The position numbers and the translations under genes were made by a program. Positions 1-15,028 of a stretch of 43,993 bases of DNA are shown here, piece after piece. Origin of the DNA: an uncultured Verrucomicrobiota bacterium (lineage in GTDB: Bacteria; Verrucomicrobiota; Verrucomicrobiia; Limisphaerales; JAJXZI01); assembly GCA_903847485.1 (NCBI GenBank), contig CAINDV010000247.1, positions 1-43,993 on the forward strand, written 5' to 3'. The stretch's first letter is position 1. The number at the start of each line of letters is the position of its first letter. Under the pieces are notes generated by a model. That model was not told where the DNA came from and did no database searches. It saw only the letters and a program-made list of their open reading frames with translations.

Positions 1-334
1 GTTAATCTCCTGTTGTAGCACAGCGCGGCTGTGCCCCGGTGCGGACAGTGTTAACAGGCGCATGCCTGACCTTACTTCCTCCAGCACACATCCGCAATGA
101 ATTATGTCGCTGTGTATAAGACACAAAGACCGAGTCATAATGCCAAGCTCACAGTTTCCCTCCATCAAAACCATCCCCCCGGCAGGTGAAGCCGGTCACG
201 CCCCGGTGATTCGTTTTCAACCCGTCCTGGTTGCTTTGTTTCTTCGTTGTTCTATTTCCAACTGCTGTTCCCAGGTTCAGACGAAAACCACGTCGGAGTC
301 GTGCCAACGGCGGAGAACGGTGATTTCTTAAGCT

Positions 335-784
335 TTGGTTGACTCACCAAACAGTGACTGGCTGGCGAAATCCAACCTCTCCGTGTCATCCGTGAAATCC
401 GTGGTCAGTTCATCTGCCTGGATACGGCTAAGCGGTGAAACCGGGCGCATCCTGGTTAACGGCGTGGAAGTTACCAACCGACTCGGGATGGGCAGGCCCG
501 ACGACGTCGTGCGTAGAAACAACTACGTCGCTCGCGGCGTCTGGCCCGGGGGCAGATCAAATGCCCCAGTGGAAATGGCCGAAGTCCGCATCTGGAACGT
601 GGCCCGCAGCCAAGCGGAGATCCCGTCTGACATGAACCGAAGTCTGGTCGGCGTGGAACCAGGGCTGATGGCGTACTACCGGATGGCCGAAGGCGCGGGC
701 ATGACCGCCTTCGATGCCAACACCAATCACCTGAGCGGCACGCTGATGAGCCGCCCGGCGTGGGTTGCGACTGCGGCTTCTTGA
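335..784 (+). pseudogene. LamG/concanavalin-A-like lectin domain fragment (C-terminal half only), probable gene remnant
   Basis: The translation ...GRILVNGVEV...VEMAEVRIWNVARSQAEI...GLMAYYRMAEGAG...LSGTL follows the conserved C-terminal strand pattern of LamG jelly-roll domains. The ORF opens directly after an in-frame TAA (329-331). It has no signal peptide and no N-terminal half. Confidence 0.4.
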
Positions 785-1019
785 CCTGCCAGCCGTGGAA
801 CGGCACCAACGGCGGCGGGCGGGCCTTCTTCGCGCATCAGGTGACACCGGGCAGCAACAGCGTCATCAGCCGATGGAAAGGGATATCGCGGGGATGGTGG
901 GTTACAGCATGTCCACTTCCACGATCTTCTTGGCGTTATCCCACCCGCCGCTACCGCCTCCGCTTGCCGTAAGGTGCCGGCGCTTGAAGCGAGTAGCAGA
1001 CGGTTCGCAACCGCGCAGT

Positions 1020-3731
1020 TCAGACAAGCGGTCCAACCCGCTCCAAGCGGAGCGCGGGCTCCCCAGCTTCGCGCGATGCCGCGAGGTCAACGCGGAACTC
1101 GGCCACCCAATCGTTGTGGCCTTCGGGATCCACGAGCACTTGCTGGACGCGCCAGGTCAGCTTGTCCTCCGACGGCGTGACGTAGGTGTGACGCATGTTG
1201 CGGGCCTCAGGAGTGAGCAGGAGTTGCTTGTGGCCGGCGAGATAGTCGTCCATGAGTTTGGCCAGGCGGTCGGCGGTCCAGGCGTTACCTTCTGAATCGG
1301 AGAGTCGGCGAATCGGTGAGACGGCGACGGCTTCCCTAGTCGCCGTTTCTCCGTCTCTCCGTCTCTCCGTTTCCACCAGTGCCCCGAGCGCCGCCTCGTA
1401 GTCTCCAATCACTAACCCGCGCAGGAAGGTGAAGATGCGATTGCGAATGGCTGCCGTGAACGCCTTGGTGTCCCGCGTAATGTCGGCGGCGGCTTCCTCG
1501 GCGCCGGGCGGTCGGACTTCCTTAGTCTCGGCGCGCTGATAACTCGGATTGCGCAGCTTCTCCCATTCGTCGAGCAGGCTGGAATCCACCTGCCGGATCA
1601 TCGTGCCGAGATAGAGTTCCATCTCTCGCAAAGTGTCGTTCTTCGCCGTGTCGGGCACGGTCTGCGCCAGGACTTTGAACACGCTGTTCAAGTGCCGCAG
1701 CAGCAAGCCCTCACTGCGCTGAAGCTCATAGTCGCGGATATAGTCGGCGAAGGAGCGGAAGGTCTCGAACATCTCCCGCGCGATGCTCTTAGGCCGGATG
1801 TTCTCTTGGCCCACCCACGGATGTTTGTCGGCGAAAGCGTTGAAGGTCGAATAGATGAACTCGCGATTAGGCTTCGGATGTTCGAGCTTCTCCAGTTCCT
1901 CCATGCGCCGGTCATAGTCCAGGCCTTCCGCCTTCATCTCGGCAACGGCCCGGCCTTTGATTTTGTCGAGCTGCTTCCTGAGAATGATGACTGGCTCTTC
2001 CAAGATGGACTCGACCAGAGTAAGCACCACTAGCGCGTAATCCTCCTGCTCCGGGTTGACCAGCGGGATGGTTTCCAACAGATAAAGCGACAGTGTCTGG
2101 TCCATCGAGAAATCGTCCTGTAACTCGATGTTCACGCGGAGCTTCCGCCGCTTAGTGGCGCAGGCGTCCTCGCCTGCGACTGTCCTGCAAGCGTCCCCGC
2201 TTGCAGTGTCCGTGCGGACGGAGACGTCCGCAGGACTTCCGGAAGGCGCGGACGCCTGCCCCACTATCTCAATAATCTTCCGTTCCACTAAGGACCGGAA
2301 TAACTGCCACGCCCGCTTGGTATGCTCCTTCTTCTGCCGGGGTGTGTCATGACAGTCGCGGATTAATCGCTGCATCGCCGCGCAACCATCGCCTTCACGG
2401 CTCAGCACATTCAACAGCATCGCGTGGGTTACCTGGAACCGCGATACCAGCCGCTCCGGCGGGGCCGCCATGAGTCGTTGAAACGTCTTCACGTCCCAGT
2501 TCACGAAGTTATGATCCGGTTGCTTGCGCTTCACGCCTTTCTTACCGCCTTTCGCCACCTTCTCCTCTAGCTTGAGGTTCTCGACTGTATGCTCCGGTGC
2601 CTGCGCCACGACCCAGCCTTGGTCATCGAATCCCTTCCGCCCCGCCCGCCCACTAATCTGATGAAAATCCCGCGCGCTCAGGATGCCCGTCTTCTGCCCG
2701 TCGAATTTGCACAGCCGCGTGAACAGCACCGTGCGGATCGGCACGTTGACGCCCACGCCCAAGGTGTCCGTGCCGCAGATGATCTTGAGGAGGCCCTTCT
2801 GCGCGAGTTGCTCGATCAGCACGCGATACTTCGGCAGCAACCCGGCGTGATGAATCCCGATCCCATGCTTGAGCCACTTGCGAATCTCCGGGCCGTAGGG
2901 ACTGGTGAACTTGAACCCGGCAATCTCGTTGGCGAGGGCGTTCTTCTCCTCCCGGGTGCAGACGTTGATGCTGGTGAAATCCTGCGCGCTCTGGGCCGCA
3001 TCCATCTGTGTGAAATGCACCACATACACCGGCGCCTTCTTCTCCGCCGCCAGCTTTTCCAATGTCTGCGCCAGCGGGATTTCCGAGTAACCGAACTCCA
3101 GCGGCACCGGCCGCGTTTCGGACTTCACCGTGGCGGTCGCGCGTCCGGTCAACTTAGTCAACTCTTGAGCGAAGAACTCGGTCTCGCCTAGCGTCGCGGA
3201 CATCAGTAGGAACCGCGTGTGCCGCAAAGTGAGCAACGGCACCTGCCAGGCCACACCGCGGTCACGGTCGGCATACCAATGAAACTCGTCCATCACCACG
3301 TCATCCACCTTGGCGTCCGAACCCTCTCGGAGCGCGATGTTAGCGAGTATCTCGGCGGTGCAGCATAGGATGGGGGCGTCGCGATTCACCGAGGCATCGC
3401 CGGTGGCCAGACCCACATTGTCCGGCCCAAACTCGCGGCACAGCGCCATGAACTTCTCATTCACCAATGCCTTGATCGGGCAGGTATAGACCGACCGCCT
3501 CCCCCGCGCCAGTGACGCGAAGTGCAGCGCCGTTGCCACCAGCGACTTACCCGACCCAGTGGGCGTGTTCAGGATGACATTCTTCTCCTCGAATAACTCC
3601 AGCACCGCCTCCTCCTGCGCCAGGTAGAGTGTAAGTCGTCGGCCCGCGACGTAATCCAGGAACTTCCCCAGCAGGTTATCGCTGCTGAGGTTCTCGTCGC
3701 GGGGCAAAAGGTCGTAAAGCATCATGGCCAT
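1020..3731 (-). CDS. Superfamily-2 DEAD/DEAH-box helicase, Ski2-like core with a long DUF3516-type C-terminal region (SftH-like)
   Basis: 903-aa ORF with an ATG start. Motifs: Walker [10 protein letters not shown], motif Ia [12 protein letters not shown], motif [10 protein letters not shown], motif III LMSATLG, motif [13 protein letters not shown]. The family name is from memory of DUF3516 helicases. Confidence 0.9.
2159..2258. repeat. Cluster of GC-rich palindromes (REP-like) embedded in frame in the helicase CDS
   Basis: Stems: cgcaggcg-tcct-cgcctgcg (2159-2178), ctgcaagcg-tccc-cgcttgcag (2185-2206), cggacg-gaga-cgtccg (2215-2230). There is a long-range pair caggcgtcc (2161-2169) / ggacgcctg (2250-2258). 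The region encodes the low-complexity peptide [17 protein letters not shown]. Confidence 0.6.
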
Positions 3732-3790
3732 CGGGTGCCGACTCTAACGGCCAACCAAGAAATCTCCAAGCCCCGAAAGCCGAAAAAACC

Positions 3791-4201
3791 TCACCTTTGA
3801 AGCAGCGCCTTGCGAATCCGCGCCAGGCAACGCGTCGGCTTCTGCAACTCATGTTCCCAAATTCTCACCACCCGCCAATCCGCCGCGCGCAAGGTGCGGT
3901 TCACCTTCCGGTCCCGCGCTTGGTTCGCCGCCAGTTTCTTCCGCCAGAACGCGGCGTGGTTGCGGGGCTTCGTGGCGTGCTTCGGGCAGGCGTGCCAGAA
4001 ACAGCCGTCCACGAACACCGCCATGTGCAGCTTTGGAAAGATGAAGTCTGGCTTGCCGAAAACGTGCTGGTTCCGCCGCCAGCCGGTGATGCCGTGCCGT
4101 CGAAATAGCTTCGCCAGCGCCAGTTCCGTGTCCCGGTTCCCGCGCGAGCGGATGCGGGACATCACCTCTGAGCGCTTGGCTTGGGTGAAGACGTCGGCCA
4201 T
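3791..4201 (-). CDS. vsr: Very-short-patch repair endonuclease (T:G mismatch nicking)
   Basis: 136-aa ORF. N-terminal SEVMSRIRSRGNRDTELAL and core GKPDFIFPKLHMAVFVDGCFWHACPKH...WRVVRIWEHEL are classic Vsr signatures. It is the last gene of the dcm operon. Confidence 0.9.
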   Translation of the reverse strand: MADVFTQAKRSEVMSRIRSRGNRDTELALAKLFRRHGITGWRRNQHVFGKPDFIFPKLHMAVFVDGCFWHACPKHATKPRNHAAFWRKKLAANQARDRKVNRTLRAADWRVVRIWEHELQKPTRCLARIRKALLQR

Positions 4202-4208
4202 TCCAAGC

Positions 4209-4934
4209 TCAAGCGGCCCGCTGGCGGAATCGGTCGAACTCTTTGGGTAAGAGCTGAAGCAGTTCCGTCGCGCTCAGGCCGTAGAGATACCACGTCAGGT
4301 CAAGCTGGTTGAGCAAGGTTGCCAGCCGGCGCGCGGCTCCGCGCACGTCTGAGCCTGCTCCGCGTTTGAAGGAGGTTTTGGCTGGGTCGTAGTAGAGTTG
4401 GGTAGCCGCTTCGGCGACGGCGCGGTTGGTCACCAGTTCCTTCCGCGAGGCAAGTTGCTCGGCTATTTCACCGGGCTTCCACAGAGGATTGCAGAGCATG
4501 GCTATCGCCCGCTGCGGTGAGTCGCGGTGTGCTCGCACGATGAGGAATGGCCCCACCAACAAATGGCGATAGAACCGCTGGTGGTTGTCCAGGATCGGTA
4601 TCAGACGCGCTTCGTCTTTCGGGTCGCGCCTGCCGAATCCATCTGCCGGACAGACCTCATCGAAGTAGAAGAGTGTCAGCCAAGTCCACAAACCTTGGTC
4701 GCGTTCCGGAAGGTTGGTTCCTGCCTTGTCGAGCAGTTCATTGAAGAACAAGCCAGCTTCAAGACGATTGGCAAACGAACGGACCACGACTTCAACGTTT
4801 CCTGGCAGAGTTTCTGTCACTGCCGGGTCTGTCAGAAGTCCGAGTGGTGGTGCAAGCGTAGGTTCCAGCGCCAGTCGGGCGCGATACATGGCGAAAGCCT
4901 TCACTCCATCAGCATTGAAACGGCATAGTTTCAT
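4209..4934 (-). CDS. Hypothetical protein (241 aa), fourth gene of the dcm-vsr operon, no recognisable domain
   Basis: It is the longest ORF at this locus. Its ATG overlaps the upstream stop as ATGA (4931-4934), and it ends 7 nt before vsr. I can name no motif. Confidence 0.65.
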   Translation of the reverse strand: MKLCRFNADGVKAFAMYRARLALEPTLAPPLGLLTDPAVTETLPGNVEVVVRSFANRLEAGLFFNELLDKAGTNLPERDQGLWTWLTLFYFDEVCPADGFGRRDPKDEARLIPILDNHQRFYRHLLVGPFLIVRAHRDSPQRAIAMLCNPLWKPGEIAEQLASRKELVTNRAVAEAATQLYYDPAKTSFKRGAGSDVRGAARRLATLLNQLDLTWYLYGLSATELLQLLPKEFDRFRQRAA

Positions 4935-5707
4935 GGGCGTGTTTCCTCCTCAAAGGTTAAATCCAAGTTAGTCCGTAGTTGGTGGCGGCGCGCGAATGCG
5001 GCCACGGCTTCGTCAATCCAAGCTTCGCGGTCCTGCTTCTGGTCAGGACTTGGAAGTGAAAGGGAAACGCCGAGACTCCGTGCGAAGCGCACCCAGTCCG
5101 CCTGCCAGCCCGGCCCTTCGTCGTCCTCAGCCCACTGTTCGTCAATCAGCACGCGAGTCAGCAACCGGCGCAAGACTTCGGGATAAACCAGCGCGAGAAA
5201 GTGCTGAGTGCGCGCCAAGTCTCGCCAGCTTGGTTTGGCTTCGATATTGACAAGCAAGCGCGGAGGCTCGTGCTCCAAGTCCAGTTTCCAGAGCAGTTCG
5301 CCAAGGGTGTCTGGCACCGGCTCCAGTAAAGGCCGCCGCTTGTCGCTGGCCTCACCCGCTTTGACGAAGTTCAGACCGTCTGCCTCGCCAAGCAGCTTGT
5401 GATGCTCCTGGCCGGGCGGTTGGACCACCCGTACGCGGAACAAGATGCCGTCCGGCACGTCGAACTCGGCCAGGCGCCGGTTCGGTGTGGGGCGCATGTC
5501 AGACACCGTGCCCCAAGCAAACTGCATCCAAAGGTTTTGCCGGTGAGCCTCCAGCCAGACCTCGGCATTGCGCGGGAAGCGATATTCCGCCAAGCGCAAG
5601 TCGGCATCAAATACCCACGTTCCGCGATCCTCGCGAAGCGTGATCGAAACGTGGTTCCGTTTGATGTTTTGCCGTCCCGTGTAGTTAAATGTTCTCTTCA
5701 TCGCCAC
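4931..5707 (-). CDS. Hypothetical protein (258 aa), third gene of the dcm-vsr operon; contains a literal PD-x22-EAK string (possible PD-(D/E)XK nuclease, unproven)
   Basis: The ORF overlaps the upstream GHKL gene by 23 nt and the downstream gene by 4 nt. The peptide is ...EPVPDTLGELLWKLDLEHEPPRLLVNIEAKPSW (P132-D133 ... E156-A157-K158). Confidence 0.65.
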   Translation of the reverse strand: MAMKRTFNYTGRQNIKRNHVSITLREDRGTWVFDADLRLAEYRFPRNAEVWLEAHRQNLWMQFAWGTVSDMRPTPNRRLAEFDVPDGILFRVRVVQPPGQEHHKLLGEADGLNFVKAGEASDKRRPLLEPVPDTLGELLWKLDLEHEPPRLLVNIEAKPSWRDLARTQHFLALVYPEVLRRLLTRVLIDEQWAEDDEGPGWQADWVRFARSLGVSLSLPSPDQKQDREAWIDEAVAAFARRHQLRTNLDLTFEEETRP

Positions 5708-7601
5708 CTTTCAATTCAATCGCGCGTACCACCAAGTCGCGCTTCTTGTCAAAACCACAGACGCCAAATTGGAAGTCGGGCTTGCGCAATTCCAGTTCGA
5801 GTGAGTTGTCTTCTTCACGAGTCACAACAACCCCGTTCGCCTTTGGCTCCTGTCTGAGTGGCTGGCGCGTGAAAATGAAATCGTCGGACGCCCATCGTTT
5901 GATGGCATTCCCTCGCCGCACAGCGTAGGCCGCCTCAATGCGGACCCTGACCGGGAACGATTCTGGTGGAGCATTGCCTGGCTTGAGGAGGAAGCCGCCC
6001 TCAACTTGGCGGAGTTCAAACCGCTTCGGTTTCGGCAGCACCCCACCAGGAGGCTCGCTCTGTTTGGCATCCTCACCCGGCTTGGGCTTTTTGGAAGGTT
6101 CCACAGGACCGTCGTCGGTTGGAAGATAAAACAGGTCCAAGAGCAAGGTAGGCTCTCCTTTGGTATCGCGCGCGTGGAGGGCCTGCATGATTTCAAACAC
6201 GCTTCGCGTCACGAACTTGATGGTGTCAGGACCATGGAAATAGCGGTTGTGGAACTTGGGCGAATCCTTTTGCCATTGCGTGTGGTTCACACCTTCCGCG
6301 TCCCCCAGCAAGCCAGCCAGCGGCGGGTCTGCCACCTCGACGAGTGAGCGGCAACCTTGCAACTGTGGAGCACGGACGTCTTTGATAAGAATGCCGTCTC
6401 GCAGGAATAGAGGCCGGTGGCCGGCATCACGGCATGGCGCGATGAAAACGGTGAAGTGCGACATAGCTTCGGGCCGCCCGTCCTTGGGGCGCACGCGGAC
6501 CGGAATCCTCACCCCGACCTTCTGACTTGTTTCCATCCGCGCACGAATCTCGCTCAGCTTGGCGTCGGACAGAAGCAACTCACCGCTCTTTCGCCAATCA
6601 GGTTGCTTGGCGACTTCCTCGGAGAGCTTCACAATTTCGGCCGGCTTCGCATACGCAGCCCAAGCAGCGAATTCAACCACGGCAGCCTCCGATGGCTGTA
6701 GCACCGACCGATGCACAGCGATGGATTCAGCATCAATGCGGTGGCTGTGTCCTGGCTCTTCCAGTTCGACCACAAGTTCCCCAAGCAGAACAGGCCAGAA
6801 GAAGTTTCGAACCACTGCCCGTCGCAAATCCTCCATGCTTAAACGGTCATCCACGCAGGGCACCACGACCGAAAGCCCTGGCTTGTCTTGCCGTTTGAGG
6901 CCAAGCGTTTGCTCGAATTGCTGAATGAAGTCCGATTCGGTCACTGGCAGCACTTGTTCGCTCTCGTTGGCACGGCAGCCGAACCAGCCATCCGGCTGGA
7001 AATCCTTGCCGGCAACCGAATGGCTGCGGACTACGGCGGAACCCATGAGTACTTTTGTCGGCGTGTCGCTGCGGACGCTCAGGCCAAACATGGAATGCAG
7101 ACGGCTGGCAGTGGGGAAAACCTGCTTGCCAATTCCCCAGCGTCCCAGGTTGTCACCGGTCTTCGATGAGCGGCCTTCCGCCCGGAAGAAGCTAAGGAAC
7201 GCGTTGTTGTCCGCACGTTCCAACTGCCACTCTGAAACGTCTCCGTTCAGCCCCTTGGTTCCGAAGTCCTCAAAGACTAGAAAGCCGATATCGCCGTTGA
7301 GTAAGTCAGCGAAGTTGCCGTTACCCAAGCCTCTTTCAAAATGGACGCGAGCCGGCTGAAACAAGGCGAGCAGCGCACTGCGAGCGTGCTCCGTCGCCCC
7401 TGTCACCAGCGCGATTCTCACCGTGACCTGCCGCTCGCTGGCACCACCTCGCTGTGCGGCGTCCAGCGAGTTCTGAATGCCTTCGCGCACTAGCGCTTCG
7501 CTTAGGTTTTCAAGGCTCTCCGCCGTGAAGAAGGCATCGTTTGCCGAGTCCCTCATCCGGTCGCAGGCTCTTCTTTCATTGAAATGCCACTGTGGTTTCA
7601 T
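5685..7601 (-). CDS. GHKL (Bergerat-fold) ATPase-like protein, MORC/paraMORC-like N-terminus with a large uncharacterised C-terminal region
   Basis: 638-aa ORF. N box REGIQNSLDA (E40/N44/D47), G1 box FEDFGTKGLNG (D112-x-G-x-x-G), G2 box LGRWGIGKQVF (G153-x-x-G-x-G). Its start overlaps the dcm stop as ATGA (7598-7601). Confidence 0.75.
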   Translation of the reverse strand: MKPQWHFNERRACDRMRDSANDAFFTAESLENLSEALVREGIQNSLDAAQRGGASERQVTVRIALVTGATEHARSALLALFQPARVHFERGLGNGNFADLLNGDIGFLVFEDFGTKGLNGDVSEWQLERADNNAFLSFFRAEGRSSKTGDNLGRWGIGKQVFPTASRLHSMFGLSVRSDTPTKVLMGSAVVRSHSVAGKDFQPDGWFGCRANESEQVLPVTESDFIQQFEQTLGLKRQDKPGLSVVVPCVDDRLSMEDLRRAVVRNFFWPVLLGELVVELEEPGHSHRIDAESIAVHRSVLQPSEAAVVEFAAWAAYAKPAEIVKLSEEVAKQPDWRKSGELLLSDAKLSEIRARMETSQKVGVRIPVRVRPKDGRPEAMSHFTVFIAPCRDAGHRPLFLRDGILIKDVRAPQLQGCRSLVEVADPPLAGLLGDAEGVNHTQWQKDSPKFHNRYFHGPDTIKFVTRSVFEIMQALHARDTKGEPTLLLDLFYLPTDDGPVEPSKKPKPGEDAKQSEPPGGVLPKPKRFELRQVEGGFLLKPGNAPPESFPVRVRIEAAYAVRRGNAIKRWASDDFIFTRQPLRQEPKANGVVVTREEDNSLELELRKPDFQFGVCGFDKKRDLVVRAIELKGGDEENI

Positions 7602-9265
7602 CCTTGGATATCCTTTGTTGAGTTGAAATCTACACGTTGAATCCTGACTTCCTCCGCCAGTTGTGGGCTTCGGTAGCAGATGCCAGCCATCTGGGCTTCG
7701 GAGCAGTAAAACTCAGCTTCGGCAAGCGCCTGGCTTCGGTAGCGCCTCCATGCTTCACGCGCAATGGGAGCAAGCACTACCGGCCAACCACTGCGCTCGT
7801 AGTAGGGTGCTGACAGTCTTGGCTCGATGGCTGCGACCGGTGCGTATTCACCTTCGCACTTCCGGCAGATGGCTTCGCCGTGGTCGAGCGCACTGTCGGG
7901 ATGCAGCCCGGCATATAGGAAGGCAATGGCGAACCATGCACGCTTGAAATCATCAGGCGCGACTCGTCTAAGAGTCGTGGGCGGCATGTCGAGGAGTGGG
8001 CGCAACCATTCTACAGCCTGCTCCTCTGTGGCGGGAAGCGGCGCGATTTCAAACGGGATAACTTGGTTGGCTGGCTGGGTGGCAGCAGTCAGGAAATCAC
8101 GGATTTCCTCGCCAACAGCTTCCGCCACCAACGGCGGCACCGCGTTGCCGATCAGGCGGAACTGGTGTGTGCGTGCCACCGGGAACGCGAACCAGTCCGG
8201 GAACGTCTGGATGCGTGCCGCTTCGCGTGGAGTAAGGGAGCGGTTCTGAGTTGGGTGGATGAACATCAGGCCGTCCTTGCTCAAGTGGGCAACGATGGTT
8301 GAGCAAAGTTCTTCCCGGTGCTGGCGCTTGTAGCGGTCCTTGAAACAGGAGCGTTTGTAGAGAAACTCCATCTTCTCGCCACGAGCCTCCGCCTCGCCAC
8401 TGTGCTCACCCTCGCGCAGCCGGGCAAAGTCGCGCAGGTCCTTTTCGTTGTGCGGTCGGGCGCGGTGAGCCGTCAGGCGTGGGGCACGGTCAATCTCCAA
8501 GACCGTTTGCAGGTAGTGCCGGGCTTTCTCTCCGCGCTCGGCGAAGAACACTTCTCGTAGCAGGAGGTCGTAGTCAGTTTCTTCGTTCCCTTCGCCAGCC
8601 AGCAATTCCGGGAGGTCGCCGATGGCATCCCACAAGTTTCGCGCCAGATGGTCACCCACGCGAGAGGCAGGCCGCAACTCGCCGGCAAAGTATCCCGGTA
8701 CGTCGTTGCGGACGCCAATGACAAGCTGGCGGCGGCGTTTCTGGGGCACGCCAAGGAACCGCGCCTCCTCAACCTGGGCCTGCACTCGGTAGCCCAGATT
8801 CCGAGCCTCCGCTTGAACCAACGTGAAGAACTTGCCTTTGGCGGCACTCTGAAGGCCCATGACGTTTTCTATCACGAAGACGCGAGGCCGAAAGGCCGCC
8901 ACGTAATCAAGAAAGTAGCGGAAGAGGTAGCGTCGCTTGTCGCGCCGCACGCGTGGACCGTGATTGGCCGCATCCACCTGGCGCACGGTGCTGAAGCCCT
9001 GGCAGGGCGGCCCCCCAACGATGACATCCACCGTGTTGACCCCGATCTTCGCGGCGAGTTTGTCCGGGGAAAACCGGGACAAATCCTTACGGAAGGCTCT
9101 TGTTTCCTTGCTGAAGTTAGCCTTGAACGTGGCGATGGCTTCCTTGTTGAAATCAATTGCGGCAAGACACCTGAAACGGGCGCGCTCCATACCAAGGGTG
9201 AAGCCACCACAACCGCAGAAGAGGTCGAGGCAGGTCAGAGACTGGGGTGTCTTGTCCGTGGGCAT
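7598..9265 (-). CDS. dcm: DNA (cytosine-5)-methyltransferase with a ~155-aa uncharacterised C-terminal extension
   Basis: 555-aa ORF. Motif I LDLFCGCGGFTLG, motif IV GGPPCQGFS, motif VI VIENVMGL, then RIQTFPDWF and motif X GNAVPPLVA. About 155 further residues follow motif X. Confidence 0.92.
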   Translation of the reverse strand: MPTDKTPQSLTCLDLFCGCGGFTLGMERARFRCLAAIDFNKEAIATFKANFSKETRAFRKDLSRFSPDKLAAKIGVNTVDVIVGGPPCQGFSTVRQVDAANHGPRVRRDKRRYLFRYFLDYVAAFRPRVFVIENVMGLQSAAKGKFFTLVQAEARNLGYRVQAQVEEARFLGVPQKRRRQLVIGVRNDVPGYFAGELRPASRVGDHLARNLWDAIGDLPELLAGEGNEETDYDLLLREVFFAERGEKARHYLQTVLEIDRAPRLTAHRARPHNEKDLRDFARLREGEHSGEAEARGEKMEFLYKRSCFKDRYKRQHREELCSTIVAHLSKDGLMFIHPTQNRSLTPREAARIQTFPDWFAFPVARTHQFRLIGNAVPPLVAEAVGEEIRDFLTAATQPANQVIPFEIAPLPATEEQAVEWLRPLLDMPPTTLRRVAPDDFKRAWFAIAFLYAGLHPDSALDHGEAICRKCEGEYAPVAAIEPRLSAPYYERSGWPVVLAPIAREAWRRYRSQALAEAEFYCSEAQMAGICYRSPQLAEEVRIQRVDFNSTKDIQG

Positions 9266-9615
9266 GAGCTGAGTTCGCTCGCGTGCGAATCAGCCCTGTG
9301 TGGTGACTGTCTCTGTGGGTCTCTGGTGCCTGAAAAGAAATGGGACGCATTTACTTACGCCCCAACACAGGCACCTAGGAGGGCCCACAAGAGAACGCTT
9401 TCGATGCGCCCCGGGTGGGGCGCACTTCAAGCGCTGTGTCTTGTCGAAATTTCCTAGGTTTCGTGTTGGACAGCAGCCGAAGCTACGCGAAATCAAATTG
9501 TGTTGTCGTTATCTCATTCGTTTCTTGCGAACGCAGTCAGCCTATCGCAACCGTTGCACCGGTGGCAACAGGTTCTCCCGCAAACTTGCGGGGAAAGTCT
9601 TTTCTAGCGGCGGTA

Positions 9616-10023
9616 TCATGCCAGCCAGTTGATCTTGATCTCCTTCTCTACCGCCTTGAACTCCGGGTCGCCGGTGACGAGTTCGGCGTTTTTCTGTTTG
9701 GCCAGCGCGGCGGCGAAACAGTCGGCGTAGGCCACCTTGTGCGTGGCTTTGAAGATGGCAGCTTGTTTGACCAGCGCCAGGTCGTCGCTCACGCCGATGA
9801 TGTCAATGGGCAGCGCGGCGATCTCGTGGGCTTTCTGCTCGGCGGCCTCCTGGGACACCTCGCGCATGGTGTTGTAATAGACCTCGCCCCAGTTCACCAC
9901 GCTCATCAGGAGCTTGTGCTTCTCGTCGGCGGCCTGCTGAAGCAGCTTCTCCACGGCGTCCGCCGCCGGTTCGTCCTCAAAGAAGGCGATCAGCGCCCAG
10001 CTATCCAGAACCTTGGTGGCCAT
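9616..10023 (-). CDS. vapC: PIN-domain ribonuclease toxin (VapC-like)
   Basis: 135-aa ORF. It has an N-terminal acidic-residue start (KVLDSWALIAFFEDE) and a C-terminal ...AYADCFAAALAKQKNAELVTGDPEF, typical of PIN toxins. It starts 1 nt after the upstream antitoxin ORF. Confidence 0.8.
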   Translation of the reverse strand: MATKVLDSWALIAFFEDEPAADAVEKLLQQAADEKHKLLMSVVNWGEVYYNTMREVSQEAAEQKAHEIAALPIDIIGVSDDLALVKQAAIFKATHKVAYADCFAAALAKQKNAELVTGDPEFKAVEKEIKINWLA

Positions 10024-10024
10024 G

Positions 10025-10270
10025 TCAAAGCTCCTGTTCGCGTTTGCGGTTTTCCATCAATGCCTTCATCACGCCGCTACCCTTGAGCGAGCCGCGCAGG
10101 TTCTTGATGTAGGTGCGGGTGACGGGCTTGATGAGGATGCCCTGCGGGGTGGATTGCACGTAGGCGCGGGTGCCCTCCTCGATTTCAAACTCCCGGCGGA
10201 GCCAGCGAGGAATGACGACCTGGCCCTTCACCGAGAAGTAAACCGTATCTGTCTTAGTTGCCGTTGACAT
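10025..10270 (-). CDS. vapB: AbrB/SpoVT/MazE-family antitoxin (VapB-like)
   Basis: 81-aa ORF. The swapped-hairpin motif [25 protein letters not shown]...GILIKP is typical of AbrB-type antitoxins. It lies directly upstream of the PIN gene. Confidence 0.8.
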
Positions 10271-10276
10271 GGATAT

Positions 10277-10304
10277 AGGATACCAATAGTGTTTGGTAAG
10301 TCAA
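10277..10304 (-). promoter_or_regulatory. Putative sigma70-like promoter with an overlapping palindromic operator for the vapBC pair
   Basis: Minus strand reads TTGACT (10304-10299), 16 nt, TATCCT (10282-10277), ending ~7 nt before the ATG. This implies a near-leaderless transcript. The inverted repeat TACCAA-N6-TTGGTA (10281-10298) fills the spacer. The patch is locally AT-rich. Confidence 0.3.
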
Positions 10305-10395
10305 TATCTATTTTGTCATACTTCCGGGAGAATGTGCCGCCCCTGCGGCTCATCGCCTCCCGCCTTTCGTTGCGCCGGTCGGCCCCGTCGTCTGG

Positions 10396-10584
10396 CTGGG
10401 TGTGGAAGCCGATTTGCCGGCGGGGCGGCTCCGGTTCCGGCGGCGGGTCGAGGAGGCGCATGAGGCGCTGGAGCACGTCCACGATGGCGGCTTCGGGGTC
10501 GTCCAGCCGGGCGGTGAGCTTGGCTTCCAGCGCCTTCAACTGGCGGGCCAGTTCCTGGGTGCCGCCCAGCAGTCTCGCTGGGAT
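10396..10584 (-). pseudogene. ORF6N/KilA-N-family C-terminal remnant
   Basis: The translation ...[51 protein letters not shown] resembles the conserved C-terminal tail of ORF6N-domain proteins, as I recall it. No N-terminal domain is present, and it is fused in frame to the helicase remnant. Confidence 0.45.
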
Positions 10585-10614
10585 TGTGCAATCCCGGTTG
10601 CGGAGTGTTTGATT

Positions 10615-10800
10615 GGGCGCATCGCGATTCACCGAGGCATCGCCGGTGGACAGGCCCACATTGTCCGGCCCGAACTCACGGCACAGCGCCATGAACTTCT
10701 CGTTGACCAGCGATTTGCCCGAACCGGTGGGCGTGTTCAGGATGACGTTCTTGTCCTCGAACAACTCCAGCACCGACTCCCCCTGCGCCGGGTATAGCGG
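10615..10800 (-). pseudogene. Remnant of the SF2 helicase 5' end (codons ~34-120 with a 25-codon deletion)
   Basis: [59 protein letters not shown] aligns to helicase residues 34-120. It lacks [25 protein letters not shown] (residues 66-90, which include motif Ia). The match ends abruptly after RDAP. Confidence 0.8.
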
Positions 10801-11209
10801 GTTCATCCGAGAGGTTTGTTCATGGGATGCCATTTCGCGTTATATCAACCACTTAGGTGCGGCTCAGCCGCTCGAAGTGTCGGCGGGCGGTGGTCTGGCT
10901 CAACACCGCGTCCAACGCACTTGTTTGCGCTTCCCTTTGGCTGTCAGCTCAACATTTTGGACCCGAATTCCGAAGTTGCCGGCGGCACAAAGTAGCGCAG
11001 GCATCCTGCCTGAGAGGGAAGCGCGGGCCGCCAGCCGGCGGCTCATTCTTTTGCGGGAAAGGCGCGTCAGCCGACCGGCACAGATGCCTGTCCTACAACC
11101 CCGGCTGGAAGCCCGTGCTGCTTCCATTTCGAAATTCGGGTTGAAATCAAAGCGCAAAATGTCCCTGCCCGCGCCTTGCTCCGGGGAGTGGAACGTGTAG
11201 CATCGTTGG

Positions 11210-14200
11210 GTGTTCGTTTGCCTGAGACTCTGGTTGAGCGTGGCGCTTCTCACGGGAAGCCATCTGCGCCTGTCGGCGGCCTCCGTGGCCGAAGTGGCGG
11301 AGGGTGAGTGGTTGGCGCGCACCTGGCAGACGGACGAGGGCCTGCCGGACAACAACATCACGGGGTTGGCGCAGACGGCCGACGGCTATCTGTGGGTAGC
11401 TACGCTAGGCGGGTTGATGCGTTTTGATGGGGCGCGATTCGAGGAGTTTTTCACGATGCATCTCCCGCGCGTCGTCAACCGCAATGTGCGGAAGATGTAC
11501 TTGGACCGGCGTGGCGCGCTTTGGCTGGTGATGGATCGTGGCGCGGTGATCCGGGTCGGCGCGGCGGCGGCGCGGGTGTTTGACGTGAACGATGGGTTCC
11601 CGGGTTCGCGGGTGACGGTGGTGGCCGAAGATGACGAGGATGGCGTTTGGTTCGTTGCCGGAAACGAGGTCTGCCGCATCCGGAGAGACAAGGTGGACCG
11701 TTTCGGCGCGGAGGAGGGTTTGCCGGCCGGCGGGAATACTTGGCTGGCGACAGGTGGGCGTGGGCAACTGTGGTTCGCCCGCGGCTCGCAAGTGGGGGTG
11801 TTCCGCGACGGTCGCTGGCTAACCTTGCTGACGCTCGATTCCGGCCCGGTGCGTCTCCTTGCGGCGCGCGCGGGCGGCCCGTGGATCTGCACGGCGGCGC
11901 AGGTTCTTAAGTTCATCGAGGGCAGCGCGCCACAGGTGCTTGCGCAACTGCCCGAGCGAGTGACCGTGCGGGTGATGCTGGAGGACAACACGGGAGCTTT
12001 GTGGATTGGCACGGGCGCGGATGGGCTGCTGCGCTTGCGGGAGAAGGAGCTGGTGCCCCTGGCGGTCTCGCACCCTGAAATCTCGGCGCTGACGGAGGAC
12101 CGCGAAGGCAACTTATGGGTCGGCACAGCGGGCGGTGGGTTGAATCTGTTGCGGCCCCGGACCATGGAACTGATCACTACGAAAGCGGGCCTGCCTTTTG
12201 AATCCGTGCGTTCGGTCTGCCAGGATGCGGAGGGCTGGGTCTGGGCGGCCCTGCAAAACGGTTCGCTGGCACGCGGGCGCGGCACTCAGTGGCAGGCCGT
12301 GACCAGCGCGGAGGGCTGGCCTGGTGGTGACGCTACCTGTGTCGCTCCCGCCCGTGACGGGGGTGTTTGGATCGGCACCCACGGTCGCGGCCTGCAGCGA
12401 TGGCACGCGGGCAAGGTCTTGGAATGGGGGCGACCGGAAGGCTTGGGCAGTCAGAACGTGCGCTCGTTACTACAGGCCACCAATGGCGCTTTGTGGGTCG
12501 CGACGGATTCGCCCAGCCGCTTGTATTGGTTCCAGGACGGTGCCTTCCACGAACTGCCGCTGCCGGCGCGGGTGCGGGCCATCCGCGCGCTGGCCGAGGG
12601 CGTGTCGGGCACGATCTGGGCCGGGACTTCCGACGGCCAGATTTTACGGGTGGCTGGAGATACTGTCGTGAATGAAGTAGAAGCCCAAGCCGGGCCGCCG
12701 TATTCCGTGCGTTGTTTGCACACCACGGCGGACGGCAGTCTCTGGATCGGCTATGCCGGTTGGGGCGTTGGGCGCTGGCACGACGGGCACTACGCCCGCA
12801 TCAGCACAGCGCAAGGGTTATATGATGATTACGTTTCCCAGATGCTTTCCGACGGGCAAGGCGGACTGTGGCTGACCGGCAACCACGGTTTGTTCAAAGC
12901 GCGGCTGGAGGAACTGGTGGCTGTGGCCGAGGGGCAGCGCGAGCACCTGCGTTCGATCGCATACGGCCGGAGTGAAGGCCTGCCGAGCCTGCAACCGTAT
13001 TGCGAAAACAGCCCCGCCGCGTGGTGGAGCGCTGACGGCCAGCTTTGGTTCGCCACGCGCAATGGATTGCTGATGGTGCAGCCGGAAAAGATCCGGGCCA
13101 ATCCCACGCCGCCACCCGTGTTGCTGAACGAGGTGAAGGTGGACGATCACCGGGTGGCGCTCTATGACAGTCAGTCGCCGCTCCGGGCGCTGGACGAAGC
13201 GAAGCTGACGGATTTGCGCCCGCCCGGCGTGGAACTGCAGTTACTTCCCGGTCACGGCAAGCTGGAGTTTGCCTTCACCGCGTTGAGTTTCAACTCGCCG
13301 GAGAACGTTCATTTCCGCTACCGCTTGAAAGGTTTCGACACGGAGTGGATGGAGGCCGGCACCCAACGAAGCGCCAAGTATCCCCGCCTGCCGGCGGGGC
13401 GTTACGAGTTCGAGGTCACGGCCTGCAACGAGGCCGGCGTGTGGAACGAGACGGGCTTCCGTCTCCCCTTCACCGTGCCACCGTTTTTCTGGCAGACGTG
13501 GTGGTTTCGCCTCGGAGCGCTGGCCGCTTTCACCGGCAGCGTCGCCGGTCTGGTGCGCTATTTCTCCTTCCGCCGGCTGCAGCGCGAACTCGAACAGCTC
13601 GCACGCCAGGCGGAGTTGCAGAAGGAACGCGCACGCATCGCCCGGGACATGCACGACGAAGTCGGCGCGAAACTTTCGCGCCTCTCGCTCTTGAGTGAAA
13701 TGGCCAGTCAGCAACCCGGCCTGCCGCCCTCGGCGCGCGGCGATGTGCGCGAGATTTCGGAAACCGCGCGCGACACCATCCGGTCCTTCGAGGAGATCGT
13801 CTGGTCGGTGAATCCGAAGAACGATTCGCTGGCGGATCTGGTTCATTACCTGTGCCGCTTCGCGGAAGAGTTCTTCGAGGGCAGCGACGTACAGTGCGCC
13901 TTTGAACTGCCGGACCAACTGCCGGACGCCGAACTGCCCACGGAACTGCGCCACCACGTCTTTTTGGCGGCGAAGGAGGCGCTTAACAACGCGTTCAAGC
14001 ATGCGCAGGCGCGACAGGTCTGGGTCCGGCTCAAACTGGCCGGCACCGGATTTGAAATCGAGATCGAAGACGACGGACAGGGATTTGCGGGTGCCGGGCC
14101 AGCGGGTCGCGTCGGGACAGGCAATGGCCTGGAAAACATGCGCGAGCGGATGCGCTTGGTAGGCGGACGGTTGGCCTTGCAAACCCAGCCGGGCAAAGGC

Positions 14201-14248
14201 ACGCGAGTAACCTTGCAGGTGCCCGGTCCGCAGTTGAGCCCGGCATGA
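11210..14248 (+). CDS. Sensor histidine kinase with periplasmic two-component-regulator propeller repeats and a Y_Y_Y domain (NarL-class HisKA_3 kinase)
   Basis: 1012-aa ORF. Repeated ...G.LWVGT/LWIGT... propeller blades, Y_Y_Y-like FRYRLKGFDTEWMEAG, TM segment WWFRLGALAAFTGSVAGLV, H box ARDMHDEVGAKLS, N box EALNNAFKHA, G boxes DDGQGF and GNGLENMRER. Confidence 0.9.
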   Translation: MFVCLRLWLSVALLTGSHLRLSAASVAEVAEGEWLARTWQTDEGLPDNNITGLAQTADGYLWVATLGGLMRFDGARFEEFFTMHLPRVVNRNVRKMYLDRRGALWLVMDRGAVIRVGAAAARVFDVNDGFPGSRVTVVAEDDEDGVWFVAGNEVCRIRRDKVDRFGAEEGLPAGGNTWLATGGRGQLWFARGSQVGVFRDGRWLTLLTLDSGPVRLLAARAGGPWICTAAQVLKFIEGSAPQVLAQLPERVTVRVMLEDNTGALWIGTGADGLLRLREKELVPLAVSHPEISALTEDREGNLWVGTAGGGLNLLRPRTMELITTKAGLPFESVRSVCQDAEGWVWAALQNGSLARGRGTQWQAVTSAEGWPGGDATCVAPARDGGVWIGTHGRGLQRWHAGKVLEWGRPEGLGSQNVRSLLQATNGALWVATDSPSRLYWFQDGAFHELPLPARVRAIRALAEGVSGTIWAGTSDGQILRVAGDTVVNEVEAQAGPPYSVRCLHTTADGSLWIGYAGWGVGRWHDGHYARISTAQGLYDDYVSQMLSDGQGGLWLTGNHGLFKARLEELVAVAEGQREHLRSIAYGRSEGLPSLQPYCENSPAAWWSADGQLWFATRNGLLMVQPEKIRANPTPPPVLLNEVKVDDHRVALYDSQSPLRALDEAKLTDLRPPGVELQLLPGHGKLEFAFTALSFNSPENVHFRYRLKGFDTEWMEAGTQRSAKYPRLPAGRYEFEVTACNEAGVWNETGFRLPFTVPPFFWQTWWFRLGALAAFTGSVAGLVRYFSFRRLQRELEQLARQAELQKERARIARDMHDEVGAKLSRLSLLSEMASQQPGLPPSARGDVREISETARDTIRSFEEIVWSVNPKNDSLADLVHYLCRFAEEFFEGSDVQCAFELPDQLPDAELPTELRHHVFLAAKEALNNAFKHAQARQVWVRLKLAGTGFEIEIEDDGQGFAGAGPAGRVGTGNGLENMRERMRLVGGRLALQTQPGKGTRVTLQVPGPQLSPA

Positions 14249-14252
14249 AGGC

Positions 14253-14272
14253 TTGTCCACACTTCATCCGAC
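14253..14272 (+). promoter_or_regulatory. Copy 1 of the conserved TTGTCCACACTNNAYCCGAC box (upstream of the response regulator)
   Basis: ttgtccacacttcatccgac begins 5 nt after the kinase stop codon and ~120 nt before the regulator ATG. A TAGAAT -10-like hexamer lies ~25 nt downstream. Confidence 0.4.
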
Positions 14273-14392
14273 TCCCGCTGACGCCGCCGGGCGGTAGAAT
14301 GACGCGGCCAGAAGATGTCAAACGATGCGTCAACGCAGTGGGCGACGGAAGCGATGGTGGGGCCACTCCCCGCTGTGCTATGGGCTGAAGTC

Positions 14393-15028
14393 ATGATCAA
14401 TGTCTCCATAGTGGAAGACGATGCGATGCTGCGCGCCACGCTGGAGCGTTACCTGGCGACCCAACCCGGCTTCCGGTGCGTCAGCACTTATCCCAACGCC
14501 GAGGCGGCGCTGGCCGGCATTCCCAACGTGAATCCCGACGTGGTGCTGATGGACATCAACCTGCCCGGACTCAACGGCATTGATTGTGTCGCCCGGCTGC
14601 GCCAGCAAATGCCCGCGCTGAAGATCATCATGCTGACCGTGTTCGAGGAGAGCGAGCAGGTGTTCAAGGCGCTGTCGGCGGGGGCGTTCGGCTATCTCGT
14701 CAAGAGCAGCCGTCCGGCAAAGATCTTGGAGGCCATCCGCGAGGTGCGGGCCGGCGGCTCGCCGATGTCCGGCAACATTGCGCGCAAGGTGGTGCAATCC
14801 TTCCAGGCGCAGGCGGCGGCGCAGGCGGCGACGCGGGCCGAAACCGATACGCTCTCCGCGCGTGAACTGGAAGTGTTACAGGCGCTCTCGAAAGGCCACC
14901 CCTACAAACAAATCGCCGCCGACCTCGGCATCAGCCTGGGCACCGTGCGCACCTACATCCAGCGCACCTATGAGAAACTACACGTCCACAGCCATGCCGA
15001 GGCCGTCATGAAATTCGCGCGCAAGTAA
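14393..15028 (+). CDS. NarL/LuxR-family response regulator (REC + HTH)
   Basis: The receiver domain has VVLMDINLPGLNG (phospho-acceptor Asp) and the LuxR HTH is LSARELEVLQALSKGHPYKQIAADLGISLGTVRTYIQRTYEKL. The ORF track starts at 14315. The ATG at 14393 (MINVSIVEDD) fits receiver-domain N-termini better. Confidence 0.9.
   Translation: MINVSIVEDDAMLRATLERYLATQPGFRCVSTYPNAEAALAGIPNVNPDVVLMDINLPGLNGIDCVARLRQQMPALKIIMLTVFEESEQVFKALSAGAFGYLVKSSRPAKILEAIREVRAGGSPMSGNIARKVVQSFQAQAAAQAATRAETDTLSARELEVLQALSKGHPYKQIAADLGISLGTVRTYIQRTYEKLHVHSHAEAVMKFARK

Follow-up and report, generated by a model that had tools for sequence, protein, structure and literature searches.

A 43,993-nt stretch of contig CAINDV010000247.1, from an uncultured Verrucomicrobiota bacterium (hereafter the window), carries between the genes dcm and vsr three genes coding for a predicted GHKL ATPase (protein A) and for two orphan proteins (B and C). 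We show that A-B-C is one translationally coupled, co-inherited unit. The region as a whole is best explained as a mobile cassette of roughly 6.5 kb, in which VapB-VapC are followed, after a spacer, by Dcm with an additional C-terminal domain, A, B, C and Vsr. This cassette is real, occurs widely and is strongly constrained. We infer that its function is defence and depends on methylation, and we put at roughly 0.5 the probability that it is an ATP-dependent, restriction-modification (R-M)-like defence system. The general kind to which it belongs, a GHKL protein in a cassette with Dcm and Vsr, is known; the B and C families and the putative docking domain of Dcm are the new part.

Coordinates below are positions in the window, and all cassette genes lie on the minus strand:

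3791-4201, minus strand: vsr, very-short-patch repair endonuclease (PF03852, 1.4e-20)
4209-4934, minus strand: protein C, 241 aa, orphan, all-alpha
4931-5707, minus strand: protein B, 258 aa from a GTG start, or 256 aa from the ATG at 5701 (4931-5701), orphan
5685-7601, minus strand: protein A, 638 aa, predicted GHKL ATPase with a transducer domain
7598-9265, minus strand: dcm, C5-cytosine methyltransferase
9266-9615, minus strand: spacer between vapC and dcm, probably holding the leader or promoter for the dcm operon
9616-10023, minus strand: vapC, PIN-domain toxin (PF01850, 2.4e-17)
10025-10270, minus strand: vapB, AbrB/MazE-type antitoxin and first gene of the cassette (PF04014, 1.7e-4; TIGR01439)
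10614-10797, minus strand: helicase-gene remnant, the diverged 5' end of a DUF3516 helicase gene, at the far boundary of the inserted cassette

The preliminary description of this DNA had delimited five tightly packed minus-strand genes, from dcm to vsr. Their coordinates, junctions and motifs were all recovered from the open reading frames (ORFs) and from the sequence read directly. The five-gene extent had to be revised, the unit being larger and including VapBC and the C-terminal domain of Dcm. The dcm stop and the A start share an ATGA, as do the B stop and the C start, and 7 nt separate C from vsr. The overlap between A and B is 23 nt when B starts at its GTG, and 17 nt when it starts at the ATG at 5701, two codons further in. 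The latter start is likelier, because 256 aa is the length of the B homologues and 17 nt is the commonest A/B overlap in 71 related loci. More generally, the junction overlaps seen in the window (ATGA, 17-23 nt) are the commonest ones among these 71 non-redundant loci. The gene order is repeated in dozens of independent contigs, and the arrangement is thus far beyond chance.

Related loci (labelled L001 and so on) were collected from three sources: 25 came from species-representative genomes, nearly all of them metagenome-assembled genomes (MAGs) of Verrucomicrobiota, 80 from metagenomes, with A at 33-68% identity, and one from a megaplasmid of Rhizobium leguminosarum. Protein A gave 746 word-index matches, and an exhaustive hidden Markov model (HMM) search for its family, clustered at 50% identity, returned 3,919 clusters at E <= 1e-3 and 1,233 at E <= 1e-30; among the best 150 clusters almost all were full-length, with ~620-650 aa. 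Seventy-one non-redundant loci held the complete A-B-C trio, A being at 33-100% identity. In every sufficiently long contig A was immediately followed by homologues of B and C, the three genes were never apart in the 71 loci, and the pairwise identities of the three proteins correlate (r = 0.90-0.96). The Rhizobium leguminosarum trio, whose proteins have 670, 260 and 257 aa, is at 26-28% identity, and hhalign aligned its members to B (97.7%, 1e-12) and to C (98.1%, 1e-13). This locus (L030, pRlX5, 6872-14312) continues after the trio with an ART-PolyVal-like gene encoded on the other strand and, ~2.6 kb downstream, with a 429-aa C5-methyltransferase-like ORF. A plasmid of Halobacterium sp. DL1 (L031) holds a match to A confined to the GHKL domain, with a C5-methyltransferase-like ORF ~5 kb off.

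The linkage to a methylase was quantified on all trios and on the subset whose flanks reach 2.5 kb or more on each side (n=35, hereafter well-flanked), and solely ORFs not better explained as Dcm were counted as Vsr. A C5-methyltransferase lay at most 4 kb away from 56 of the 71 trios and from 31 of the 35 well-flanked ones (89%), and Vsr lay at most 5 kb away in 24 of these 35 loci. The preliminary description had asked whether B and C always keep company with A and a C5-methyltransferase or Vsr across genomes; they do so with A in all 71 loci, and with a C5-methyltransferase or Vsr in most of the well-flanked ones. Upstream methylase genes on the strand of the trio, the arrangement of the window, were counted 22 times, downstream ones on that strand 21 times, and downstream convergent ones 13 times. 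These three positions argue for selection on the linkage rather than for inherited synteny. Methylase type does not track the clades of A. Since Dcm co-varies only weakly with A (see below), the methylase is an exchangeable partner; the picture is of a core, A-B-C, that stays fixed and of a Dcm(-Vsr) module that can be swapped.

The two end genes had been called textbook, and their profile matches bear this out. Dcm matches PF00145 (6e-62), TIGR00675 (192 bits, above the cut-off) and the PADLOC model MTase_II (2e-89), and the motifs FCGCGG, GGPPCQGFS, ENV and GNAVPP are found in its translation. It is a complete C5-methyltransferase with an extra domain found only in these cassettes:

8081-9265, minus strand: methyltransferase domain of Dcm, aa 1-395, with PF00145 over aa 11-388 and motifs I, IV, VI and X
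7598-8080, minus strand: C-terminal extension of Dcm, aa 396-555 plus the stop codon, cassette-specific, proposed docking module

The C-terminal ~150 residues of Dcm match no Pfam family. The domain was fused to every upstream-type Dcm found, including in loci with A at only 35-40% identity. After the downstream-type Dcms, which share only 25-30% identity in the methylase domain, it is encoded as a separate ORF of 120-145 aa. Its conserved motifs are LHPDS..DHG, SGWP and AWRRY; a zinc-binding CxxC was considered and rejected, the cysteines not being conserved. No other feature hints as strongly at a physical connection of the methylase with the trio as this cassette-specific domain, and it is solely from it that we infer a coupling of methylase and effector in the cassette. 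In L014, L018 and L019, Dcm appears to be split over 2-4 frames in the dcm region (~6100-8000), beside an intact A-B-C. Vsr, with TIGR00632 at 108.9 bits (cut-off 97.85), PF03852, the PADLOC model Vsr at 2e-16 and the motif FVDGCFWHAC, is a canonical T:G mismatch nickase. A 456-aa ORF in L022 (9233-10603) matches both Dcm and Vsr profiles, as an apparent fusion or a read-through in a decayed locus.

Proteins of the cassette were compared with Pfam, NCBIfam, PHROGs, the PADLOC HMMs (its models alone) and, by phmmer and hmmsearch, the PDB, using single sequences as well as profiles of close and of diverse homologues. Protein A had no sequence match in Pfam, NCBIfam, PHROGs or the PDB. Models of the Pfam HATPase_c clan were matched neither by the window's A (E <= 0.1) nor by 75 relatives (E <= 0.01), and profiles of 26 or 75 A homologues gave against the PDB merely a non-significant match at the N box, to the DevS histidine kinase (E 1.9). 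Its translation does contain E40/N44/D47, EDFGTKG and GRWGIGK. An AlphaFold2 model of A, built from the alignment of 75 homologues, had a mean predicted local distance difference test score (pLDDT) of 90.0 and a predicted template modelling score (pTM) of 0.78. Foldseek returned 73 PDB matches to it at E <= 0.001, and the top ones listed were all GHKL + transducer proteins: Topo VI-B (2e-12), Hsp90 (6e-9), GyrB/ParE 43K fragments (~1e-8) and MORC3 (7e-7), with alignments spanning 500-760 columns. Because a confident model retrieves such proteins, A is, as judged from its predicted structure, a GHKL ATPase with a transducer domain and with its ATP-binding motifs intact. Its predicted domains are:

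6732-7601, minus strand: GHKL/Bergerat ATP-binding domain, aa 1-290, with N, G1 and G2 boxes, supported by Foldseek and by the PADLOC model PDC-M33A
6162-6731, minus strand: transducer (S5-like) domain, aa 291-480, from the Foldseek alignments, with R401, E436 and H440
6021-6161, minus strand: Pro/Lys-rich linker, aa 481-527, predicted disordered (pLDDT 52-59)
5685-6020, minus strand: C-terminal all-beta domain, aa 528-638 plus the stop codon, seven strands (pLDDT 88-97)

Among the 75 homologues (27-45% identity), invariant residues are R39, E40, Q43 and N44 in the N box, E111, D112 and G117 in G1, and G153, G156 and G158 in G2; taken whole, the GHKL motifs ExxxNxxD (E40, N44, D47), D112-F-G-T-K-G117 and G153-R-W-G156-I-G158-K are invariant or at least 90% conserved. 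In the transducer, R401 and E436xxxH440 are invariant, this ExxxH lying near the end of the domain. The linker is poorly conserved and of varying length. In the C-terminal domain D574, G616 and R621 are invariant, and F575, F617, D618 and D622 nearly so. The GHKL part of the earlier label, a GHKL/MORC-like ATPase, is thus supported by AlphaFold and Foldseek. Membership in MORC proper is not supported: MORC3 is only rank 39 among the Foldseek matches, after Topo VI-B, Hsp90 and GyrB, so that MORC is not the closest structural relative, and no A-family member (the window's A and 75 relatives) matches Pfam HATPase_c_3, the type of profile that marks MORC sequences. "MORC-like" is true of A solely in the broad sense of GHKL + S5.

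The two small proteins had been called orphans, and the three internal genes had been said to form no recognisable restriction module; both statements stood. Neither B, with close or diverse profiles, nor C had a match in Pfam, PADLOC, NCBIfam, PHROGs or PDB sequences, and no restriction endonuclease (REase) model of Pfam or of the PADLOC HMMs matches either of them. B has 197 close homologues, every one annotated as hypothetical, and C has 492. C is the most conserved protein of the cassette (82% mean column identity over 114 clusters), and among the closest 120 clusters identities were 63-95% for B and 71-100% for C. The AlphaFold2 model of C is all-alpha, with pLDDT 89.7 and pTM 0.87. It had no fold match in the PDB (best Foldseek E 2.5, template modelling score ~0.15) or in BFVD (best E 3.0), and Foldseek gave no match to PD-(D/E)XK, HNH, GIY-YIG or PLD-like folds. 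Polar residues of C conserved down to 27% identity are R57, D79, C95, R123, H124, Q160, N170, Y181, R203, Q210 and E232; the conserved polar residues of B are N8, T10, R12, E53, R56, R91 and D110, and the N-terminal half of B is basic, with an isoelectric point of 10.1.

Three candidate motifs or families in these proteins were rejected. The D...ExK-like string LDLEHEPPRLLVNIEAK of B, which recalls a PD-(D/E)XK site, was set aside as a nuclease site because its E and K positions vary among close homologues. A ParB/DGQHR-like motif in C (DNHQRFYRH) is without structural support, and only its R123 and H124 are kept in distant homologues. Weak matches to CheR_N in 4 of 66 B/C members (best E 0.0011) were treated as noise.

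Genes that accompany the core were also examined. In the window vapB and vapC are 1 nt apart and have the features of a type II toxin-antitoxin system. VapBC precedes the core in numerous other loci too, both related and distant, and vapC homologues (42-85% identity) are found upstream of Dcm or A in L001, L005, L008, L009, L017-L022, L024 and L027-L029. Being recurrent in related loci, VapBC is a part of the cassette and not independent island context. In ~17 loci a gene for a 75-86-aa Xre-type helix-turn-helix (HTH) protein overlaps the first gene of the operon, as those of R-M controller (C) proteins do. Such HTH genes are seen in L003 (6155-6382), L011, L013, L021, L024, L026, L035, L039, L041, L046, L058, L061, L063 and L088; the overlap is with Dcm in most loci and with A in L058.

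Decayed copies (L022, L024-L029) have kept VapBC, Dcm or Vsr, and their A is reduced to its first 27-450 codons or carries internal deletions; in L027-L029 just a short 5' stub of A directly follows vapC. This loss of A, B or C while Dcm, Vsr or VapBC stay, typical of the decayed copies, is as expected if the restriction arm goes first. The distribution is patchy, and integrase genes flank the cassette in L001/L002. No match was found in 50,697 phage records, and plasmids and IMG/VR gave three weak matches and three weak loci, respectively; the cassette is therefore chromosomal or island-borne, and not viral. In the window, ~260 nt from the 5' part of a helicase gene are present twice, at 3371-3629, inside an intact DUF3516 DEAD-box gene (1020-3731), and at 10614-10797, with 85-88% identity. 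This confirms the duplicated target gene of the preliminary description and places the cassette between the intact helicase gene and its diverged remnant. The second copy lacks 75 nt and runs on into unrelated sequence, within a hybrid ORF (10228-10833) that has a weak DEAD-box match. The same helicase (82% aa identity) is found downstream of vsr in L026.

A GHKL ATPase in a multi-gene defence locus linked to Dcm and Vsr is a known arrangement. GHKL genes of the MORC/paraMORC type were described computationally in 2008 in R-M-like operons containing Dcm and Vsr, in which paraMORC proteins are predicted to act (Iyer, Abhiman & Aravind, PMC2292703), and an analogous cassette is found in PMC8011034, so that the system cannot be called undescribed, as it had been. 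The paraMORC2 proteins resemble A in having an N-terminal GHKL and an S5/transducer domain and an ExxxH, which is their signature (PMC2292703), and their neighbourhoods, with a cytosine methylase and Vsr, patchy and laterally mobile, resemble the cassette. Since its invariant E436xxxH440 fits the published signature, A plausibly belongs to paraMORC2, a family known from computational work only. The same paper stresses superfamily II helicase and restriction-endonuclease-fold nuclease partners, both of which are missing from the cassette; in the text of PMC2292703 that was available to us, B and C do not appear. The sole paraMORC-type protein with experimental data in the literature searched is the paraMORC3/Shedu protein VcSduA (PMC12137116), the architecture of which differs from A-B-C by being nuclease-fused.

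A cassette composed, in this order, of a C5-methyltransferase, HEF_HK (with HATPase_c_3), Response_reg_2 and Vsr, of unknown mechanism, was reported by Bellieny-Rabelo et al. 2021 (PMC8011034). It is like the window's in its upstream C5-methylase, paraMORC-like GHKL protein, small partner(s) and directly downstream Vsr, but its GHKL and partner families are others and it has one small partner, versus two here. PF19191 (HEF_HK), PF19192 (Response_reg_2) and HATPase_c_3 indeed had no match in A, B, C or their diverse homologues. Among the PADLOC HMMs, PDC-M33A matches the window's A (E 3.7e-15) over aa 1-282, at model positions 1-269 of 627, which is the GHKL domain, and it is matched by 75 of 75 diverse A homologues (best E 1e-32). 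B and C of the window had no PADLOC match (E <= 0.1), nor had 66 diverse B and C homologues (E <= 0.01). PDC-M33 is a three-gene PADLOC candidate (FAM_02818>>FAM_02838>>FAM_01881, 98 RefSeq occurrences), defined by its genomic context, embedded in BREX, DISARM or Type I R-M (Payne et al. 2024 preprint, 10.1101/2024.01.29.577857). Like the cassette core it has three genes, and its first protein, of ~627 aa, matches A over the N-terminal ~270 positions; it differs in that only the GHKL part of the model aligns with the window's A, B and C are unmatched, and no Dcm/Vsr partnership enters its definition. Among the PADLOC models, the trio is thus matched by a candidate only, and in one domain of A. 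None of the three outcomes that the preliminary description had set as refutations arose with the tools used. Type III R-M and BREX are like the cassette in proposed logic only, with a methylase physically coupled to an effector that contains an ATPase, a self mark made by methylation, and a system that withstands losing its methylase. They differ in their proteins, since A, B and C are not homologous to Res, PglZ or BrxC/L and the methylase of the cassette is C5, not N6.

The reading of the cassette as an R-M-like defence system is drawn from the operon coupling, the co-evolution of A, B and C, the GHKL fold, the methylase link and the C-terminal domain of Dcm, and further from the controller HTH, the decay that takes A-B-C first, mobility, the PDC-M33A match and the paraMORC precedent. 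In the mechanism that we propose, Dcm would mark host DNA at target sites, a dimer of A would form an ATP-gated clamp on DNA, as in Topo VI-B, MutL and MORC, and A, together with B and C, would recognise and then inactivate DNA without the mark. The C-terminal domain of Dcm would dock the methylase to the A-B-C complex, and the docked methylase would supply sequence recognition, as do Mod in Type III and PglX in BREX. Such docking would explain the unrelated Dcm partners, the tolerance of apparently broken Dcm and the exchangeability of Dcm. Vsr would repair the T:G mismatches arising from 5-methylcytosine deamination, offsetting its mutagenic cost, VapBC would stabilise the cassette, and the small HTH controller of the relatives may time expression after transfer. 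Candidates for the effector are a new nuclease in B or C, the recruitment of Vsr (as by E. coli MutL), or a non-cleaving, BREX-like exclusion.

Several observations weigh against this reading. No nuclease or effector domain was found in A or C, by sequence and fold, or in B, by sequence. The covariation between Dcm and A is weak (r 0.19-0.48), and Dcms of the convergent type gave no sign of the cassette-specific C-terminal domain. Four of the 35 well-flanked trios (L080, L081, L092 and L105) stand among housekeeping genes with no C5-methyltransferase or Vsr nearby. In L014, L018 and L019 an intact trio adjoins a frameshifted Dcm; these are MAG assemblies, in which sequencing error is possible, and if the frameshifts are real the trio is tolerated without an adjacent methylase. 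The window's own copy has no HTH controller gene, as seen on examination of the vapC-dcm spacer. Finally, the literature searched held no experimental work on the A-B-C trio.

Some of these points would also suit an A-B-C that is autonomous and methylation-blind, and that travels beside Dcm-Vsr through the clustering or embedding of defence genes. Dcm-Vsr would in that case be an orphan pair of methylase and repair enzyme, or what is left of another R-M system. The four stand-alone trios without a nearby methylase, the varying position and type of Dcm with its weak covariation with A, the intact trios beside a frameshifted Dcm, and the fact that PDC-M33 was defined through its places inside BREX, DISARM or Type I R-M loci rather than through a Dcm partner all point this way. 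We nevertheless hold this explanation to be rather unlikely: the neighbour is specifically a C5-methyltransferase, and no other methylase class, in 89% of the well-flanked loci, over the whole range of A (33-100%) and in three architectures. Dcm moreover usually abuts or overlaps the trio (by ATGA in the window), a cassette-restricted domain is fused to it or encoded just after it, and the HTH controller heads Dcm-A-B-C as a single operon. As an observation apart, the stand-alone trio of L081 (4747-6852) adjoins a GmrSD_N + Schlafen/AlbA_2 protein, which is Type IV restriction-like.

The trio could also serve repair, or the epigenetic mark itself, as an accessory of Dcm-Vsr rather than as a defence effector, with a MutL-like A which, with B and C, would load or activate Vsr at T:G mismatches or handle 5-methylcytosine lesions, and so lower the mutagenic burden that a mobile methylase brings to new hosts. 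In E. coli the GHKL ATPase MutL does stimulate Vsr (cited in PMC2292703), Vsr is the sole recognisable nuclease of the cassette, A and C have no nuclease fold, and vsr comes directly after C, at 7 nt. Vsr is however not found within 5 kb in ~30% of the well-flanked loci, trios exist without Dcm or Vsr, ordinary Dcm-Vsr pairs are generally known to work without such partners, and the best structural matches of A are Topo VI-B, Hsp90 and GyrB, not MutL. As mobility, toxin-antitoxin linkage, the controller HTH, patchiness and frequent decay all fit a selfish or defence module better, we regard a repair accessory as improbable. An ordinary Type II R-M system, in which B or C would be a fast-evolving conventional REase and the GHKL protein would be dispensable, seems to us very improbable, more so than any of the foregoing. 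The position of B and C between the methylase and Vsr genes is the usual one for an REase gene, REases are often beyond sequence recognition, some acidic and basic residues of B are conserved (E53, D110, R56, R91), and the cognate C5-methyltransferase is present. Against this, a recognisable REase acting alone was not found (by sequence for B, by sequence and fold for C); the confident model of C has no PD-(D/E)XK, HNH, GIY-YIG or PLD match, and the putative D...ExK of B is not conserved. B and C evolve slowly, recognisable down to ~27% identity together with A, and the three proteins are unseparated in 71 loci with r >= 0.9. The same trio also occurs with unrelated Dcm types (25-30% identity), which is not expected of a Type II REase, because such an enzyme must match its methylase.

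Within the R-M-like reading, a bolder version is possible, although we think it doubtful. A-B-C would then be a new class of ATP-dependent restriction complex, made of a Topo VI-B/MutL-like GHKL clamp and two proteins with unseen folds, one of them carrying a novel nuclease or DNA-inactivating chemistry, and with an exchangeable, docked C5-methyltransferase as its specificity subunit; C, with its invariant D79, C95, R123 and H124, would be an example of a carrier of the new chemistry. If this were true, it would extend a Type III/BREX-like logic to 5-methylcytosine, in >1,200 clusters at 50% identity, and so widespread a system would be missing from Pfam, from NCBIfam and from the finders of defence systems. 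The prediction of GHKL/paraMORC proteins in operons linked to methylases dates from 2008, and in the literature searched experiments exist only for the nuclease-fused paraMORC3/Shedu branch. The cassette is a compact and abundant member of this class, with three co-evolving core proteins, two of them without a family and one of these with a confident model that has no fold match in the PDB or BFVD. Its characterisation could show by what means a DNA-clamp ATPase recognises 5-methylcytosine as a mark of self, uncover new effector chemistry, and add a common, currently invisible system to defence annotation tools. The cassette also bears on the prokaryotic roots of the eukaryotic MORC-type, methylation-linked chromatin ATPases.

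A few features of the window remain to be reported. A promoter-like site (10304-10277) near vapB and a terminator-like hairpin (9341-9364) in the vapC-dcm spacer are both at chance level, the counts in the promoter and terminator scan being no higher than the shuffled expectation, and an Rfam scan of positions 1-12000 found no RNA family. The spacer shares 78% identity with its orthologue in L005, and positions 9260-9493 of the window, which reach 6 nt into dcm, share 89% with a second copy there, which is inverted. The two copies of L005 lie at 2538-2773 and 5879-6262, and the inverted one abuts the start of an ORF of 847+ aa for a Mod/Type IIG-like adenine methyltransferase, with PDB sequence matches to Mbo45V and to EcoP15I Mod. 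The spacer element may be a leader or promoter common to two R-M-type operons.

The surroundings had been described as typical of a defence island. No other defence gene was found in the neighbourhood of the cassette in the window, hence no wider island, VapBC belongs to the cassette, and the rest of the window is devoted to carbohydrate metabolism and a two-component system. The neighbouring genes, at 11210-15028 and 15186-43993, code for a hybrid histidine kinase (Reg_prop/Y_Y_Y) and its accompanying LuxR-type response regulator, for two sulfatases, a GH2 glycosidase and a GFO/IDH oxidoreductase, and for two large proteins with PATR repeats, a setting typical of polysaccharide utilisation in Verrucomicrobiota.

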